Origin: Frankiales bacterium
GTDB taxonomy: Bacteria > Actinomycetota > Actinomycetes > Mycobacteriales > Geodermatophilaceae
NCBI GenBank assembly: GCA_025465155.1
Contig: JAODNJ010000403.1
Location: 367-64,366, forward strand
Direction of reading: 5' to 3'
Length of the DNA stretch: 64,000 bases
In this document: positions 57,922-64,000 of the stretch, one piece after another
How positions within the stretch are numbered: the stretch's first letter is position 1
Layout: each line of letters starts with the position of its first letter
Position numbers and translations under genes: made by a program
The notes under the pieces: model-generated
Databases searched by the model: none
The model's input: only the letters and a program-made list of their open reading frames with translations
What the model was told of the DNA's origin: nothing

Positions 57922-58410
57922 GCTACCGGCTTCACCCCCACGGCGACAAACTGCCGGACGAGCTGCTGTCGCTGATCACCCTCGAAACCACGGCCGACGG
58001 AATCGTCACCTACGAGCTCGTGGTCATCCCCGGACTTCCGCAAACTGAGCCGTATGTTCGCGAGCTGCTGCGGTGGGGCAAGAACTCAGGCGGAACGGCG
58101 TTCGAGTCGAGGGTGAACGCACGACTGGCCCGGCAGGTGATCTTCAACCGACCCTGGTCCACTCGCCTGACCTTCTATGTCCACGAGCACGCGCTTCGCT
58201 CGCTCGTCGGCAGCTCGCAGCTCAGGCACGAGCAGGTATTGCATCTGATCTTGACCAGTTCGCTGCCCAGGTGTCGAATCCTGGTCATCCCGGCCTCAGC
58301 GGCGCCGATCGGGATGTTCGGCGGTTCCTTCCGGTTCATGACCTTCACCGAGGTACCCCCGGTCGTCTATGCCCAGACGCACACGGCAAGCCTCTTCCTC
58401 GAAAACTCTC
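57921..58410 (+). pseudogene. Truncated XRE/DUF5753-type regulator lacking the N-terminal HTH and C-terminal helix
   Basis: GYRLHPHGDKLPDEL...YELVVIPGLPQTEPY...RLARQ...HEHALR...GGSF...VVY...ASLFLE. The frame begins at the repeat edge with no start codon and runs into a second repeat. Confidence 0.75.
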
Positions 58411-58420
58411 ACATGCGTCA

Positions 58421-58491
58421 CCGGCAAACTCACTCCATGGACGCGAGTTTGCCGGCTAGTGACGTGAGTTGCCTGGCCACGGACGCGAGTT
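58421..58491. repeat. 21-bp-periodic repeat with an internal hairpin, family C
   Basis: GGACGCGAGTT (58439), TGACGTGAGTT (58460), GGACGCGAGTT (58481); ccggcaaactc/gagtttgccgg inverted arms. Confidence 0.7.
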
Positions 58492-58504
58492 CCACGTTCG
58501 TGCC

Positions 58505-59209
58505 TCACACTGGGACCGTGACTTCCCAGCGGACGCTGGTGACGGACGGCTCGAGGGACAGGCGGCTGACGGCGGACTCCATCTGGGCGTCGTCGCGCTG
58601 GTCGCCGACGAGCGCGGCGCGGACTTCAACCGAGTGCTGGTCGGGCAGGTCTGTGCTCAGCACCGACAGCAGCCGGAAGTCCGTGCGGGTCAACGCCTGG
58701 ACGAGCAGTGCACGCACGTGGGCTTCGGCGTCGTCACGGGTGACAGCCTCGAACAGGTACTGCGTCGGGACTTCGTCGCCGGTGTCGGGACGCCGGTCGA
58801 CGACGCGCCCGAGGGCCCGCAGGCCGACGTTGACGCCGACGATGACGACCGTTCCCGCCAGCGCGATCTGGTACAGCCCCGCCCCGGCCAGCGAGCCGAT
58901 GGCCGCGGAGCACCACAGGGTCGCGGCGGTGTTGAGCCCGCGGACATTGAGGCCGTCACGAAGAATCACTCCCGCACCAAGGAATCCGATGCCCGACACG
59001 ATCTGCGCGGCGACGCGCGTGGGGTCGCCCTGCGAGGACAGACCGGAGAAGCCGTGGGCCGACAGGAGGACGAACAGGGTGGCACCGATCGCGACGAGGG
59101 CGTTGGTGCGCAGCCCCGCCATCCGGGCGCGGTACTGACGCTCGAACCCGATCACCGCGCCCAGTCCGACCCCGGTTCCGACGCGCAGCAGCATTTCGAA
59201 GGTGTTCAT
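58505..59209 (-). CDS. mgtC: MgtC/SapB family protein with C-terminal ACT-like domain
   Basis: IGFERQ, AGLRTNALVA.G, RVAAQIVSGIGFLGAG, GLNTAATLW..AAIG. Confidence 0.93.
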   Translation of the reverse strand: MNTFEMLLRVGTGVGLGAVIGFERQYRARMAGLRTNALVAIGATLFVLLSAHGFSGLSSQGDPTRVAAQIVSGIGFLGAGVILRDGLNVRGLNTAATLWCSAAIGSLAGAGLYQIALAGTVVIVGVNVGLRALGRVVDRRPDTGDEVPTQYLFEAVTRDDAEAHVRALLVQALTRTDFRLLSVLSTDLPDQHSVEVRAALVGDQRDDAQMESAVSRLSLEPSVTSVRWEVTVPV

Positions 59210-59281
59210 GGTTCCGGCTCTTTTCTGGCGTGCGTACACAAGGCCAGACAGGAAGAAGACCGGGACGAGCCAGCCGCTGGG

Positions 59282-59419
59282 CTAGGGAAGAACCCGCGAA
59301 GGAGCGGCGCTTCGGTTCCGTCCGGTCTTCTCAGGACTGTCTTCCGGCATGTGCCGCTCACCTCGCTTTCGTGCTCGTCGTGTGATGATCAGTTGATCAG
59401 CTCGGCCACTATGCCCCAT
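59282..59419 (-). CDS. Possible 45-aa leader/small ORF upstream of mgtC
   Basis: AGGAGGTG RBS before ATG 59419; internal GAGGTGA RBS and ATG give a 22-aa alternative. No recognisable family. Confidence 0.3.
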   Translation of the reverse strand: MGHSGRADQLIITRRARKRGERHMPEDSPEKTGRNRSAAPSRVLP

Positions 59420-59591
59420 GACGACACCTCCTGGCCACCCCGCTGTGACGCAGTCGTCTCGTGAGCCCTGGTGCCGCGGAAGCCGAGACTGCGACGAGCG
59501 CGGCGGGCGAGGCCAGCGCGCCCGTCCGGCACTCACGTCTCCCTGTTCACACTGGCCTCAAGAATCCGCCGGAACTCTAGCTCAATGACAA

Positions 59592-59634
59592 GAAGGGGAC
59601 CTTCCACGCTCAGAATGCGTGAAAAGTCCCCTTC
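59592..59634. repeat. Palindromic REP-like element, family A copy 3
   Basis: gaaggggaccttccacgc-tcagaat-gcgtgaaaagtccccttc. Confidence 0.75.
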
Positions 59635-59685
59635 AGGCGTTTTAACTGTCAGTGAGAGCAGTCCGTCAGCGAACGCGTCTAGCCA

Positions 59686-61314
59686 CTACCAACTGGTGTG
59701 GACGACCGCACCCGACTTCGGGTCGAGCGTGACCTTCTTGGCCTGCGGCCACCAGAAGTTGAACATGTTCCACAGCCCACCGGACCGCGTGTCGAACGAG
59801 TGGTCGCCGATCTTGCCGGTGAACCAGTTGTCCTCGATGAAGCTCAGAACCGAGGTCTGGTCGGTACGGGTGTGGTCGACGAAGTTGACCTTGCTGTACG
59901 GCGAGATCACCTCGAGCGGCAGCCGCGGACCGTAGCCGCAGCGGTCGGCGTACTGTCCGAGCACGGTGGGCGTGCCCGTGCAGAGACCGACGTCCTGCGT
60001 GGAGTCCTGAGAGCCGTTGATGAGCTGGCTCGCGTGGTCGTACCAGCCGTCGGAGTCGTCGTACGCCAGCACGATCGCTGTCGAACGCCAGTCCGGCGAC
60101 GCCTGGATCTTGTTGATCTCACCGGCGACGAACTGCTGCTCGTCGAGCGGGTCCGAGTAGCCGGCGTGGCCGTCCTGGTACTCCGGGGCCTTCAGGAAGC
60201 TGACCGCCGGCATCGAGCCCGCCTTGAGCGACGCGTCGAAGTCCGACGTGTCGTACTGGTGGTTCGCCTGATCCGTCTGCCCGATCGCCTTGACCGAGCT
60301 CGGGGCCAGGTGCTTCGGGTTGGCCGTCGACTTGTAGTACTGGAACGGCTCGTGGTGCGGGCTGTAGTCGACGGACGCCTGGCCGCCGACGTTGGCGTGC
60401 TTCTGCCCGCACACGGCGAACCCGTTGGCGCTGCCCGTCGGGCGGAACCCGCCCTGGAACCAGCCCCAGCTGACGCCCCGCTGGTTCAACAGGTCGCCGA
60501 TGTTCTGGCCCCCCATGCTGGCGAGGTTGTCCGTGGCCGTGTGGTTCTTGTCCGAGCAGTCGTCATACGCCGGGTCCGGGTCGTTGATGACGGTTCCGAC
60601 GCCCTGGGCGTTGGGCGAGGCAACCGCGTACGCGTCCGTCGTCGGCTGGTGCGTGACCGAAGTGAGCGCCTGCGCACCGTGTGTCTGCCCCGAGATCAGG
60701 TTGAGCGCTCCCGGGGTCGACGGGCCGAACGTCGTGTTGTAGGAGTTGTCGCTCATCGCGTAGTGCTGAGCGTAGTTCCACATCCCGGTGACCGTGTTGC
60801 CGTCGTAGTAGTCCATCACCAGGCCCGGCTCGCCGAAGAGCACCGGCTGGCCGGTGCACTTTTCGCGTTCGGTGTGCTCGACGAACTGGTCCATCTTGCC
60901 GCCGTTGAACGCCTTCTGCTCCGAGCTGTAGCCGTGGTCCTGGTCGCAGGTCAGCGCCTGGGCCGGACCGAGCCGCTTCGGGTTGTAGGCGTTCGGGTTG
61001 TTGTTGAGCAGCTGCGGGGACAGCCCGTTCACCTGGGGCGTGTTCCGCGCCGCGGTGAACGGCGTGCCGTCGGCGTTGGTCGCGTTCGGGTATGTGCCGA
61101 AGTAGTGGTCGAACGAGATGTTCTCGCCGAAGATGACCACCACGTGCTTGATCGGGGTCGCCGTGGGCGTCCAGTCGGGGCGCAGGCTCAGCAACGGCTG
61201 CGCGTCCGCCCCGCCGGCTGCCGAGGCGGAGACCGCCACGAGCGCCGCGACGGAGGCCAGCGCGCCGGCACCGAGAAGTCGCCGACGTCGCCACCTGCCG
61301 GGTCTTTTTTCCAC
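59686..61314 (-). CDS. Secreted phosphoesterase / phospholipase C (AcpA/PLC, alkaline-phosphatase-like fold)
   Basis: Arg-rich Tat-like signal (RWRRRRLL), IKHVVVIFGENISFDHYFG, DQDHGY, PSTPG, YDDSDGWYDH, GPRLP; AGGAGG RBS. Confidence 0.9.
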   Translation of the reverse strand: MEKRPGRWRRRRLLGAGALASVAALVAVSASAAGGADAQPLLSLRPDWTPTATPIKHVVVIFGENISFDHYFGTYPNATNADGTPFTAARNTPQVNGLSPQLLNNNPNAYNPKRLGPAQALTCDQDHGYSSEQKAFNGGKMDQFVEHTEREKCTGQPVLFGEPGLVMDYYDGNTVTGMWNYAQHYAMSDNSYNTTFGPSTPGALNLISGQTHGAQALTSVTHQPTTDAYAVASPNAQGVGTVINDPDPAYDDCSDKNHTATDNLASMGGQNIGDLLNQRGVSWGWFQGGFRPTGSANGFAVCGQKHANVGGQASVDYSPHHEPFQYYKSTANPKHLAPSSVKAIGQTDQANHQYDTSDFDASLKAGSMPAVSFLKAPEYQDGHAGYSDPLDEQQFVAGEINKIQASPDWRSTAIVLAYDDSDGWYDHASQLINGSQDSTQDVGLCTGTPTVLGQYADRCGYGPRLPLEVISPYSKVNFVDHTRTDQTSVLSFIEDNWFTGKIGDHSFDTRSGGLWNMFNFWWPQAKKVTLDPKSGAVVHTSW

Positions 61315-61363
61315 TGTGGTCCTCCTGTGATGAACCCTGTTGCGGGGACTGTTTTCTTGCTGT

Positions 61364-62590
61364 TCAGCCGAGCAGAGCGCGGCCGTAGTGGTCTTCGGGC
61401 CCGGTCACCCCGGGCAACACGAAGAAATAACCCCCACCGGTCGGGGAAATGTAGTCGACCAGCGGCTCGTCGGCGAGCCGGGTCTGGATCGCCTCGAACT
61501 GGCGTTCGGTATCCTGCTGGTAGCAGGTGAACACCAGACCCATGTCGAGGTTGCCGTTGACGTCGACACCCCGGTCGTAGTTCGCCGCCCGCCGCAGGAT
61601 CCGGCTCGAATCGGTCTCCGGGGTGCGCGGGTTGGCCTTGCGAATGTGGGCGGTCAGCGGGATCACCGTGCCGATCGGGTCCTGCGCGTACTGCGGAACG
61701 TCCATTTCCTTGGCACCGTCGAGTGGGGCGCCGGTGTCACGGCGACGCCCGAACATGTTCTCCTGCTCGGAGAGCGAAACGCGGTCCCAGAACTCCACGA
61801 GCATCCGGATCACCCGCACGACCTGATAACTGCCACCCGCCGTCCACGACGGCTCACCCGCACCGCCGGCGACCCAGACGAGCCGGTCCATTTCGGCGGC
61901 GTCGGTCGGGACGGGGTTCGCGGTGCCGTCCTTGAAGCCCATAAGGTTCCGGGGAGTGCCGTCAGGCCGCGGTGGCGAGCTGAAACCGTTGACCTTCCAA
62001 CGGAGCTGCATGCCGCCGCGAGTCGCACGAGCGATGTCCCGCAACGCGTGCACCACCGTGTCCGCGTTCGCGGCCGACAGCGTCAGACTGAGATCACCAT
62101 GGCACTCAGCTGGATCCAACGCGTCGTTGGGGAACGTCGTCATCGGCTTCAACTTCGCGGGTTTGCGGTCCGCCAGCCCATAACGCCCGTCGAACAGGGA
62201 CGAACCGACGCCGACAATCACCGAGAGGTCACCAGCGGGCACGGTGGGACCCAGTACACCCGAGTCGGCGGGCGGACCGGTGATGCCGAGCGCCGCCGGG
62301 GAACCTCCGGCGGTGAGGAACCGCGCCCGGTCGGTGATCGAGCGCAGGAGGGCCGTGAGTTCGGCCTTGTTCTCAGCGATGACGTCGAACGAGGCGACGA
62401 TCGTCTGCCCGGGCGGCTCACGGAGGATTGACGCCTGGTGGACCCCGTGGAACGGCACGGCCGAGTCGTTCGCGTCAGCCGCCGGAGCGAGGGTGACGCC
62501 CAGGCCGGCACCGGCCACCCCGACCGCGGTCGCGCTAGCGCCCATCGCGGCTCGGCGGAGGAAAACCCGCCGGGGCAGATCGGCACTCAA
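61364..62590 (-). CDS. efeB: Tat-exported Dyp-type heme peroxidase (EfeB-like)
   Basis: TTG start overlapping the efeO stop, with a GGAGG RBS; RRVFL Tat motif, [32 protein letters not shown]. Confidence 0.9.
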
Positions 62591-63753
62591 GAGACCCTCC
62601 GGGGTTCGGTGATGGCGGCGATCGGCGCGAGGAGTTCGGTCAGCTGGCCGACATCTCCGTTGATCTTCTGCCGCTGCGGCTGGGCCAGTTGGGTGACCGG
62701 AGTCCAGGAACCGTCGGCCTGCCGCGCCGTCTGGATGGCCGCCTGAGCCCTGGCCAGCCACGAATCCGCGGTCGGCAGCGCCGGGTAGCGAGGGATGAGC
62801 AGCGGCCGCAGGACGTCGAGCACCGCACGGGTGCCGTCGAGGTTCGCCAGGGCGGTGGCGAGGTTGGTGCCGCTGCCGTAGTCGGTCTTGCCGGTCAGTT
62901 CGAACTGCAGCGCGTTCTCGACGATCTCGTGGGCGCGCAGGCCCAGGTCGTTGGGATCGACCTGTGAGGAGGGGAAGGCCTCCCGCAGCTTCCGCGCGTC
63001 GGTGTCCAGCTGGTCCACGACGGCGCCGAGAGCCTCCATCGGCTCGCCATGCCACAAACCGAACTCGAGGCGGTGGAAACCGGTGAAACCCGGATCGGAC
63101 GTTCCACGGGGCAGACCGGCGGTGGTTCCGTTGAGCGCGCCGTCGGAATCACCGAACGCGTCGTAGGCCGCGCCGAGCCGCTCGTAGGACAGATGCGCGG
63201 TCAACCACGCTGTCTGACTCGCCGCCCGGTCCCCCGAGTGGACTGCGGACTTGAGCTTGTCGGTGTCCGTGATCAGCGTGCCGAGGCCCGCTGTCACCTT
63301 CTCGGTGTACGCCTTCAGCGGCGCGAGGAGATCGTTGCTGGTCACCGGGACGACCGACGGCCCGGAGCGCTCAGCGCCACCGGTCACCTTCGAGACGGGT
63401 CCGACGATCGCGCTCGTTTCGTCGGGCAAGCAGCGGAAGGCGTACTCACCGTTACCCAACGTGACAGCCATCGGGCGGGTCGTGTCGGGGCCGAGGCCCT
63501 CGACCTCACCGAAGATGGTCCCCGTTCCCGGGTCGATCAGGTCGACCTCGGCGGTCACGGTGCCGGTGTTGTGCAACTCGAAGGTCTGCGGTCCCGGCTT
63601 CGGATCTTCCCAGCCCAGGCCGCAGGAAGACCGCGATACCGAGATCTCCGGATCCTTCGCGGTGGCCGAACCGGGCCAGAGGACCACCACCGCGCCCGCC
63701 ACGACGAGGACGGCGATCGCCCCGATCCCGCCCGTACGCACAGAGCGCCGCAC
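62587..63753 (-). CDS. efeO: EfeO/EfeM-like protein (cupredoxin-like domain + peptidase-M75/imelysin-like domain)
   Basis: N-terminal [40 protein letters not shown]. Confidence 0.85.
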
Positions 63754-63850
63754 TCACTACCCCTTGTCACTCGGATGGACGAGCACCGGACAGGAATTAT
63801 GAGAGCGGAAAGTGAACAATGTCCCCCTTACGGGGTGTTGGATACCCGTT

Positions 63851-63872
63851 GTTCACCCAGACTTCACTACAG
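63851..63872 (+). promoter_or_regulatory. PHO-box-like pair of 11-nt direct repeats
   Basis: GTTCACCCAGA CTTCACTACAG. A further GTTCACT lies on the minus strand at 63811-63817, next to a CATAAT -10-like element (63796-63801). Confidence 0.5.
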
Positions 63873-64000
63873 CGAACGCTGACGTCCGTTTCCTACACTA
63901 TGCCGTTTGCGTCCAGTCCTCCGGGGCGCGTGGACTGGACCAGAGGCCAGTGTCCGTGGGGCAGGTGGTGTCGGTGTGACTGCTGGGGCTGGCCGGTCCG

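Follow-up and report, generated by a model that had tools for sequence, protein, structure and literature searches.

A permease-less, apparently Pho-regulated EfeO-EfeB variant coupled to a predicted AcpA-type phosphatase in soil actinomycetes

The EfeUOB system of Escherichia coli and its counterparts YwbLMN in Bacillus subtilis and FepABC in Staphylococcus aureus normally import iron through the FTR1-type permease EfeU, while the physiological role of EfeO and of the A-type DyP peroxidases, to which EfeB belongs, is debated between ferrous oxidation, haem deferrochelation and lignin oxidation. Here we describe a related locus on a 64-kb stretch of a Frankiales bacterium contig (JAODNJ010000403.1; hereafter the window), the G+C content of which, about 70%, is typical for an actinomycete, and which carries on its minus strand, from 63753 to 59686, three genes: efeO, efeB and a gene for a PF04185 phosphoesterase. 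The locus shares with EfeUOB an EfeO with cupredoxin-like and M75 domains and a conserved acidic/His site, an EfeB that is an A-type DyP peroxidase with a signal for twin-arginine translocation (Tat) and with the GXXDG Asp, the proximal His and the distal Arg, and the translational coupling of efeO to efeB. It differs in that the FTR1 permease is missing from the operon, from the window and from the immediate flanks of 88 homologous cassettes, a phosphatase gene stands in third place, a PHO-type direct repeat is found at the promoter instead of a Fur or IdeR box, and the EfeU-linked EfeB proteins of actinobacteria form a separate clade. As such, the unit is apparently a Pho-regulated, permease-less variant of EfeOB that is coupled to an AcpA-type phosphatase and widespread in soil actinomycetes.

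The third protein compares best with AcpA of Francisella tularensis, which reportedly has been purified and studied alone, without an EfeO/EfeB partner. The two are of similar length, and the serine nucleophile, the four metal ligands and the four substrate-binding histidines are all kept, whereas the protein described here comes from a soil actinomycete, has an arginine-rich Tat-like signal and two insertions with a Cys pair, and is encoded behind efeO-efeB in an operon under a PHO-type motif. PhoD and PhoX are exported, Tat-dependent, phosphate-starvation-induced phosphatases that depend on Fe(III), and they offer an analogy in that their function, too, is tied to extracellular iron. However, their folds and metal sites are unrelated and iron is a built-in cofactor there, while the iron-handling proteins of the cassette are separate polypeptides and its AcpA shows no iron site.

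With respect to regulation, the PhoP direct repeat unit of Streptomyces spans 11 nucleotides (nt), with the consensus G(G/T)TCAYYYR(G/C)G and the core GTTCACC, and PhoP operators lie near the -35 region on either strand (PMC2275107). The PHO boxes of Amycolatopsis follow the same consensus and compete with the pstS box of S. coelicolor in electrophoretic mobility shift assays (PMC3004843). The Pho promoters described in these genera (pstS, phoU-phoRP, phoD, SCO1196) resemble the one reported here, as they carry two to three 11-nt units with a GTTCACC core by the -35 region, and some known operators lie on the non-coding strand (PMC2275107; PMC3004843). The PhoP target SCO1196, a putative secreted protein, has an operator of this kind. 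A keyword search of two papers met no efeO- or efeB-type gene among the PhoP targets, and the PDB matches indicate for the model streptomycetes only more distant DyP peroxidases (SCO3963, DtpA). The initial annotation of this DNA knew of no characterisation of the three-gene unit, and our literature searches likewise found no published description.

The cassette and its conservation without EfeU

The cassette and its signals are the following:

63836-63872, minus strand: PHO-box-like array of three 11-nt direct repeat units resembling the PhoP consensus
63796-63825, minus strand: sigma-70-like promoter, GGGACA, 18-nt spacer, CATAAT, from a consensus scan of 58400-64000
62587-63753, minus strand: efeO-like gene, from GTG at 63753 to TGA at 62587, 388 amino acids (aa), Peptidase_M75 at 49 bits (cut-off 23.5)
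61364-62590, minus strand: efeB, A-type DyP haem peroxidase, 408 aa, Dyp_perox_N and Dyp_perox_C domains, Tat signal
59686-61314, minus strand: predicted AcpA-type acid phosphatase gene, GTG start at 61314, 542 aa, PF04185 at 269.5 bits (cut-off 23), arginine-rich Tat-like signal
59592-59634, minus strand: intrinsic-terminator-like hairpin, 18-bp stem with 10 G-C pairs, followed by the T-rich TTGTCATT

The initial annotation had described an overlap of efeO with efeB, a phosphoesterase gene 49 nt further on with its own ribosome-binding site, and three exported products, two of them with twin-arginine-type signals, and each of these points holds. The stop of efeO and the start of efeB overlap as TTGA (62590-62587), the start codon of efeB being the TTG at 62590 (62593 is ruled out, as the codon there is CTC), with GGAGGG 5-10 nt upstream of it; the efeB stop lies at 61366-61364 and the phosphoesterase GTG exactly 49 nt on, preceded by AGGAGG at 61326-61321. 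EfeB has a canonical Tat signal, the phosphatase a less canonical Tat-like one and EfeO a Sec-type signal/anchor. The PHO-box-like array, the promoter and the terminator are features additional to that annotation. GGGACA-18-CATAAT is the sole promoter-like site on both strands of 58400-64000, with 0.3 expected from shuffled sequences, and close relatives retain (C)ATAAT or TAnnAT in the corresponding position, while the terminator hairpin lies 52 nt past the phosphatase stop. The promoter-like site upstream and the hairpin downstream thus delimit the unit, and a self-contained, exported three-gene operon, presumably co-transcribed, is supported.

No FTR1/EfeU gene had been seen in the operon or in the 247 nt upstream of it, and this absence extends to the 64-kb window, where tblastn with a streptomycete EfeU (from Streptomyces sp. 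S186, locus L060; FTR1 by Pfam at 183 bits) returned nothing even at E<=10. A metagenome contig with an identical efeO adds 113 nt and brings the sequence upstream of efeO to 360 nt in total; this 2.4-kb contig, found via EfeO, was all that an exact-protein look-up gave, with none for EfeB or the phosphatase. As for an efeU just outside the window, there is none in these 360 nt, which are the extent of the coverage for this genome, and every relative with enough upstream sequence contradicts it. The upstream stretch contains segments of 53-55% GC, against about 70% for the genome, as well as a dispersed repeat. Between the contig end and about 63901, one frame of the same strand has no stop codon, and it could be the tail of a short upstream open reading frame. 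The repeat, at 63948-63998, is short and of high copy number (GTCCGTGGGGCAGGTGGTGTCGGTGTGACTGCTGGGGCTGGCCGGTC on the plus strand): word depth rises there from 76 to about 1100, some 15-fold (run X1; contigs of four soil metagenomes), and many tiny contigs begin or end in it. The repeat argues for non-coding DNA at that place and probably explains why public assemblies of this organism break upstream of efeO.

The cassette recurs widely. When one genome per species was scanned with the phosphatase (80 loci; nearest relatives in Amycolatopsis, at 77-79% identity), efeO-efeB lay directly upstream of the phosphatase gene on the same strand at 49 of the 80 loci, and 27 phosphatase relatives had no adjacent efeOB. 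Carriers are found in Amycolatopsis, Actinocatenispora, Kribbella, Labedaea, Actinomadura, Spirillospora, Nonomuraea, Streptomyces, Streptacidiphilus, Nocardia, Leifsonia, Humibacter, Subtercola and Flexivirga, and among several metagenome-assembled genomes. A second sample, of metagenome contigs, was drawn with EfeB as the query in place of the phosphatase and gave 59 loci with enough flanking sequence, arranged as follows:

efeO-efeB-phosphatase: 39 of 59
phosphatase divergent from or upstream of efeO-efeB: 6 of 59
efeU-efeO-efeB: 9 of 59
efeO-efeB alone: 5 of 59

The 49 genome and 39 metagenome cassettes amount to 88 loci in at least 15 actinobacterial genera and at least 6 orders, and in none of them is EfeU a neighbour. 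FTR1 was absent from the 73 Pfam families found upstream of efeO at 44 loci, where the upstream gene varies nearly everywhere, and no downstream gene is shared, the commonest family occurring at 8 of 69 loci. A fourth conserved gene was rejected, since the upstream neighbours all differ and Mrp/ApbC, which recurs in one subclade, reflects lineage synteny only. The initial annotation had suggested a neighbourhood survey for such cassettes without efeU, and at all 88 loci the flanks are variable and the three genes stay together, which supports a cassette that appears to be independent of an adjacent EfeU.

The only FTR1 gene within about 10 kb of a cassette is that of Streptomyces sp. S186, where it is the first gene of a further, complete efeU-efeO-efeB set that lies 5.5 kb past the phosphatase gene; no permease was found within 7-10 kb of the other cassette loci. 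Having the cassette together with a canonical efeUOB, this region (NZ_CP193932.1, 7100-19500 of locus L060) provides a natural internal control, and its efeU is preceded by an inverted repeat, GGTATGCCT...AGGCATACC, not by direct repeats. In a neighbour-joining tree, ten EfeU-linked EfeB proteins form one clade and those of the divergent arrangement another, with the phosphatase-linked EfeB making up the rest. Pairwise distances in the 69 complete cassettes co-vary, with r = 0.89 for EfeO and EfeB, 0.80 for EfeO and the phosphatase and 0.74 for EfeB and the phosphatase (Mantel p = 0.001). In many relatives efeB and the phosphatase gene are further apart (the spacer has an estimated median of about 160 nt), so that an internal promoter is possible there.

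Two variations on the layout were seen. Two tandem phosphatase genes follow efeO-efeB at loci L009 (7200-13400) and L090 (1500-4700), and at five metagenome loci (L098, L112, L133, L135 and L161), the EfeB proteins of which form a clade of their own, efeO-efeB is divergent from the gene of a PF04185 phosphoesterase that is less closely related (42-52% identity).

The promoter motif

The array reads GGATACCCGTT / GTTCACCCAGA / CTTCACTACAG on the plus strand (63840-63872) and AGTGAAGtctg GGTGAACaacg GGTATCCaaca on the sense (minus) strand, and it ends 11 nt upstream of the -35 hexamer. Its central unit matches the PhoP consensus at 10 of 11 positions and the others at 7 of 11 and, for the third, of which the core alone was compared, 5 of 7. 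On both strands of the window, this array is the only pair that matches GTTCACC-n4-GTTCACC at 12 or more of 14 positions.

The same motif emerges from the relatives. The most enriched hexamers upstream of efeO are GTGAAC and GGTGAA, present in 27-30 of 49 regions against 5.5-7.5 expected, and GGTGAAC, which they spell, is the reverse complement of GTTCACC. The repeats lie on the efeO sense strand with 11-nt periodicity (a streptomycete example is GGTGAACcccgGGGGAAAtcttGG), and tandem pairs (>=11/14) occur upstream of efeO at 1.8 per kb, ten-fold the 0.18 per kb of other intergenic DNA from the same loci, in sense orientation in 29 of 49 regions and in antisense in 1 of 49. A sense repeat pair precedes efeO in 42 of 69 cassettes, and the distribution by arrangement, set beside that of IdeR-like boxes with at most 5 mismatches, is as follows:

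efeO-efeB-phosphatase, genome loci: sense repeat 28 of 46; IdeR-like box 1 of 46
efeO-efeB-phosphatase, metagenome loci: sense repeat 14 of 23; IdeR-like box 1 of 23
efeUOB: sense repeat 0 of 8; IdeR-like box 3 of 7 (metagenome loci)
efeO-efeB only: sense repeat 0 of 6; IdeR-like box 0 of 6
divergent arrangement: sense repeat 0 of 5 (antisense 1 of 5); IdeR-like box 0 of 5

Of 27 stand-alone phosphatase relatives, 13 have such repeats as well, but these are mostly oriented the other way. For the upstream region in the window, a scan that was limited to IdeR among the iron regulators found no IdeR-like box with 6 or fewer mismatches in 19, which bears out the absence of an IdeR/DtxR box stated in the initial annotation. 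By these comparisons the predicted PHO-type motif is specific to the cassette, and a phosphate-type regulation, in which PhoP would bind the array and low phosphate would induce the operon, is supported. The initial proposal of phosphate scavenging rather than iron uptake is strengthened to this extent, by a PHO-box-type motif and no iron box here and the opposite pattern in the efeUOB relatives.

Three further observations concern the motif or the surroundings of the operon. When the other genes of the fetched loci were scanned, the only further strong matches preceded a 263-aa protein that has no Pfam match. This uncharacterised protein of Spirillospora and Actinomadura (L012, 2621-3412, and L019, 2509-2985; both minus strand) is encoded about 4 kb upstream of the cassette, behind a 13/14 GGTGAAC-n4-GATGAAC pair, and is possibly another member of the same regulon. 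Locus L009 has an IdeR-like box with 2 mismatches (TTAGGTAAGACTAACCTAA) and, about 50 nt downstream of it, a direct-repeat pair that scores 13/14; the combination suggests control by both iron and phosphate in this host. In the window, an MgtC/SapB-family gene (59239-58505, minus strand) follows past the terminator, with a leader of about 350 nt (59240-59590) and a single GTGAAC word in its 5' region (59552-59547). An Rfam scan of 58000-64000 gave zero matches, the leader included. This gene was rejected as an operon member, because the terminator intervenes and mgtC adjoins the cassette in no relative.

The encoded proteins

The phosphoesterase finds its top PDB match in F. tularensis AcpA (2D1G; E=2e-141, 55% identity over 456 aligned residues), while the phospholipases C in the PDB match only at E=1e-19 or weaker. 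All nine active-site residues of AcpA are aligned and identical, with roles as given for AcpA (PMC6635428):

nucleophile: AcpA S175, here S199
metal ligands: AcpA E43, N44, D386 and D387, here E64, N65, D419 and D420
substrate-binding histidines: AcpA H106, H287, H288 and H350, here H127, H320, H321 and H383

The NCBIfam models acid_phos_Burk (156 bits) and PC_PLC (145 bits) both score far below their cut-offs, and the subtype is therefore assigned only from the match to 2D1G. On this basis the protein is predicted to be an AcpA-type acid phosphatase rather than a generic phospholipase C; the family label of the initial annotation, AcpA/phospholipase C, was right, and the subtype is now narrowed. 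The AcpA metal site holds one metal with all-oxygen ligands, and iron has not been reported in it (PMC6635428). The n-region of the signal, RWRRRRLLGAG, is Tat-like, if less canonical, and a loose RR pattern recurs in 52 of 88 homologues, so the phosphatase is probably exported through Tat by means of its arginine-rich predicted signal. An identity of 55% to the AcpA of Francisella, a gammaproteobacterial pathogen, is high for hosts so distant and suggests horizontal transfer of acpA at some point.

EfeO combines an N-terminal hydrophobic Sec-type signal/anchor, a cupredoxin-like N-domain and a C-terminal M75 (imelysin) domain, and its PDB matches are Algp7 and E. coli EfeO. Its score against the NCBIfam equivalog, 181 bits, is below the cut-off of 270, as are those of all actinobacterial EfeO proteins tested in either context, the EfeU-linked ones scoring 180-221. 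The HRLE motif is found at 227-230, and E230, H275, E276, E279 and D291 are invariant in phosphatase-linked and EfeU-linked homologues alike.

EfeB has the Tat motif PRRVFLRR, with the RR motif present in 77 of 77 homologues, and reaches 426.4 bits against a TIGR01412 cut-off of 428; the phosphatase-linked EfeB of Streptomyces sp. S186 (8558-9649 of L060) passes it, at 451 bits. Among proteins of known structure it is closest to 'deferrochelatase' entries (24rq, 410 bits) and to E. coli EfeB/YcdB (393 bits), and the Streptomyces DyP peroxidases DtpA (about 190 bits) and S. coelicolor SCO3963 (197 bits) are more distant. D221 of the GXXDG motif, the proximal H315 and the distal R333 are invariant in 105 homologues. 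With their catalytic and metal-binding residues retained, EfeO and EfeB look fully functional.

Proposed role and alternatives

We consider the chances about even that the cassette is a PhoR-PhoP-type phosphate-starvation operon for extracellular phosphate scavenging, a reading in which the whole part played by EfeO and EfeB is one that we infer. In such an operon, PhoP would bind the array of three direct repeats, immediately 5' of the -35 hexamer, and activate a single efeO-efeB-acpA transcript that ends at the hairpin (59634-59592). All products would be exported, EfeB and probably AcpA through Tat, and EfeO through Sec, to be tethered at the surface; AcpA, with its serine nucleophile and one metal, would free orthophosphate from organic phosphate esters. 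EfeO and EfeB would then represent the iron-handling half of EfeUOB in a paralogous copy that lacks the permease, with the haem-peroxidase and metal-binding residues retained, and may act on iron that is tied to phosphate substrates or products. EfeB could oxidise Fe(II) with peroxide and EfeO capture the Fe(III) at the cell surface, so that iron-complexed esters would become accessible and the freed phosphate would be spared re-precipitation and Fenton chemistry, and the iron would not be fed into the cell. An iron-associated role of this kind is favoured because the two proteins keep these residues, are paralogues separate from the EfeU-linked pair and stay linked to the phosphatase when the gene arrangement changes. 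More tentatively, we propose as one possibility that EfeO and EfeB form an extracellular iron-redox 'unmasking' device, by which iron would be oxidised and sequestered, iron-complexed organic or mineral phosphate opened to AcpA, and phosphate kept soluble. The release of phosphate from iron-bound or organic sources, an option raised in the initial annotation, is compatible with these observations.

Several points weigh against the proposed role. Residues that distinguish phosphatase-linked from EfeU-linked proteins number only 4 in EfeO and 2 in EfeB, none at known functional sites, and the NCBIfam scores fail to split the two groups of either protein, so that the proteins themselves give no sign of a changed function. 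About 40% of the cassettes are without the repeat pair at the threshold used, and the sense motif is absent (0/5) from the clade with the divergent arrangement. The public sequencing runs that contain this sequence are of soil-metagenome DNA only, with no RNA runs among them. In addition, many of the loci come from related streptomycetes, and the counts are thus not independent events, while a stoichiometric Fe(III)-binding role of EfeO is chemically speculative.

The retained residues and equal NCBIfam scores also suit an iron uptake in trans, in which EfeO and EfeB would pass Fe(III) to EfeU or another permease encoded elsewhere and would be induced with the Pho regulon as cells starved of phosphate need more iron, for instance for Fe(III)-dependent PhoD/PhoX-type phosphatases, with AcpA just another Pho gene. 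The efeU of Streptomyces sp. S186, 5.5 kb from its cassette, and the IdeR-like box with 2 mismatches beside the direct repeats of L009 point the same way. Nonetheless, we judge this explanation unlikely: an EfeU, where there is one, comes with an EfeO and an EfeB of its own, which belong to a separate clade, the other cassette loci have no permease within 7-10 kb, and an IdeR-like box precedes 3 of 7 metagenome efeUOB loci but only 2 of 69 cassettes. Moreover, a second arrangement, the divergent one, keeps efeO-efeB linked to the phosphatase as well, which is hard to explain with a passenger AcpA.

The assignment of the repeats to PhoP is a prediction, and they might serve another OmpR-family regulator that responds to acid, redox state or nitrogen, such as GlnR, in which case the operon would answer a non-phosphate signal. 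The second repeat of the streptomycetes (GGGGAAn) is degenerate and resembles the b-site of GlnR, PhoP and GlnR sites overlap at some promoters (PMC3561978), and many hosts come from acidic soils and bogs, going by record titles. However, the best-conserved unit is exactly GTTCACC and its 11-nt periodicity is that of the PhoP consensus (PMC2275107). As the operon also encodes a phosphatase, and stand-alone phosphatase relatives have such repeats too (13 of 27, mostly in the other orientation), we regard a different regulator as quite improbable.

We are very doubtful of a cofactor service, in which EfeB and EfeO would act as maturation factors that make, deliver or keep oxidised the active-site metal of AcpA outside the cell, even though the linkage is tight in two gene arrangements and the divergence of the proteins co-varies. 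Francisella AcpA was reportedly purified and studied alone, 27 of 80 close phosphatase relatives have no adjacent efeOB, and the Tat-type signal suggests folding before export. Enzymes of the AcpA family depend on a metal and are sensitive to reductants, with ascorbate inhibiting F. tularensis AcpA and dithiothreitol lowering the activity of SapM, for which the bound metal or its oxidation state is discussed as a possible cause; but the AcpA site is a single one with oxygen ligands only and no reported iron (PMC6635428). For these reasons, the work on AcpA without such partners, the third of relatives without efeOB and the nature of the metal site, the initial suggestion that EfeO and EfeB load the enzyme is weakened.

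Finally, a neighbourhood of merely co-inherited genes for secreted proteins, without functional coupling, could yield the distance correlations through shared species phylogeny alone, but it is highly improbable given an order kept across at least 6 actinobacterial orders while both flanks change, the start-stop overlap of efeO and efeB and the short spacer to the phosphatase, an independent divergent arrangement and a cassette-specific promoter motif.

A permease-less EfeO-EfeB that is wired to a phosphatase and to a predicted phosphate-starvation promoter offers a clean genetic handle on the debated role of EfeO and the DyP peroxidases, and Streptomyces sp. S186, with both the cassette and a canonical efeUOB, is a natural system in which to study their division of labour. 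Annotation pipelines will call the genes of the cassette components of an 'iron uptake system', as the phosphatase-linked EfeB that passes the equivalog cut-off illustrates, and the context and likely regulation of the cassette suggest that this label is probably misleading. Soil phosphorus is mostly iron-bound, and the cassette suggests that soil actinomycetes connect iron chemistry with the way in which they acquire phosphorus. If unmasking were true, it would be a hitherto undescribed way for bacteria to mine iron-bound phosphorus in soils, acidic ones in particular, and would give the A-type DyP peroxidases and EfeO a role that is independent of iron import.

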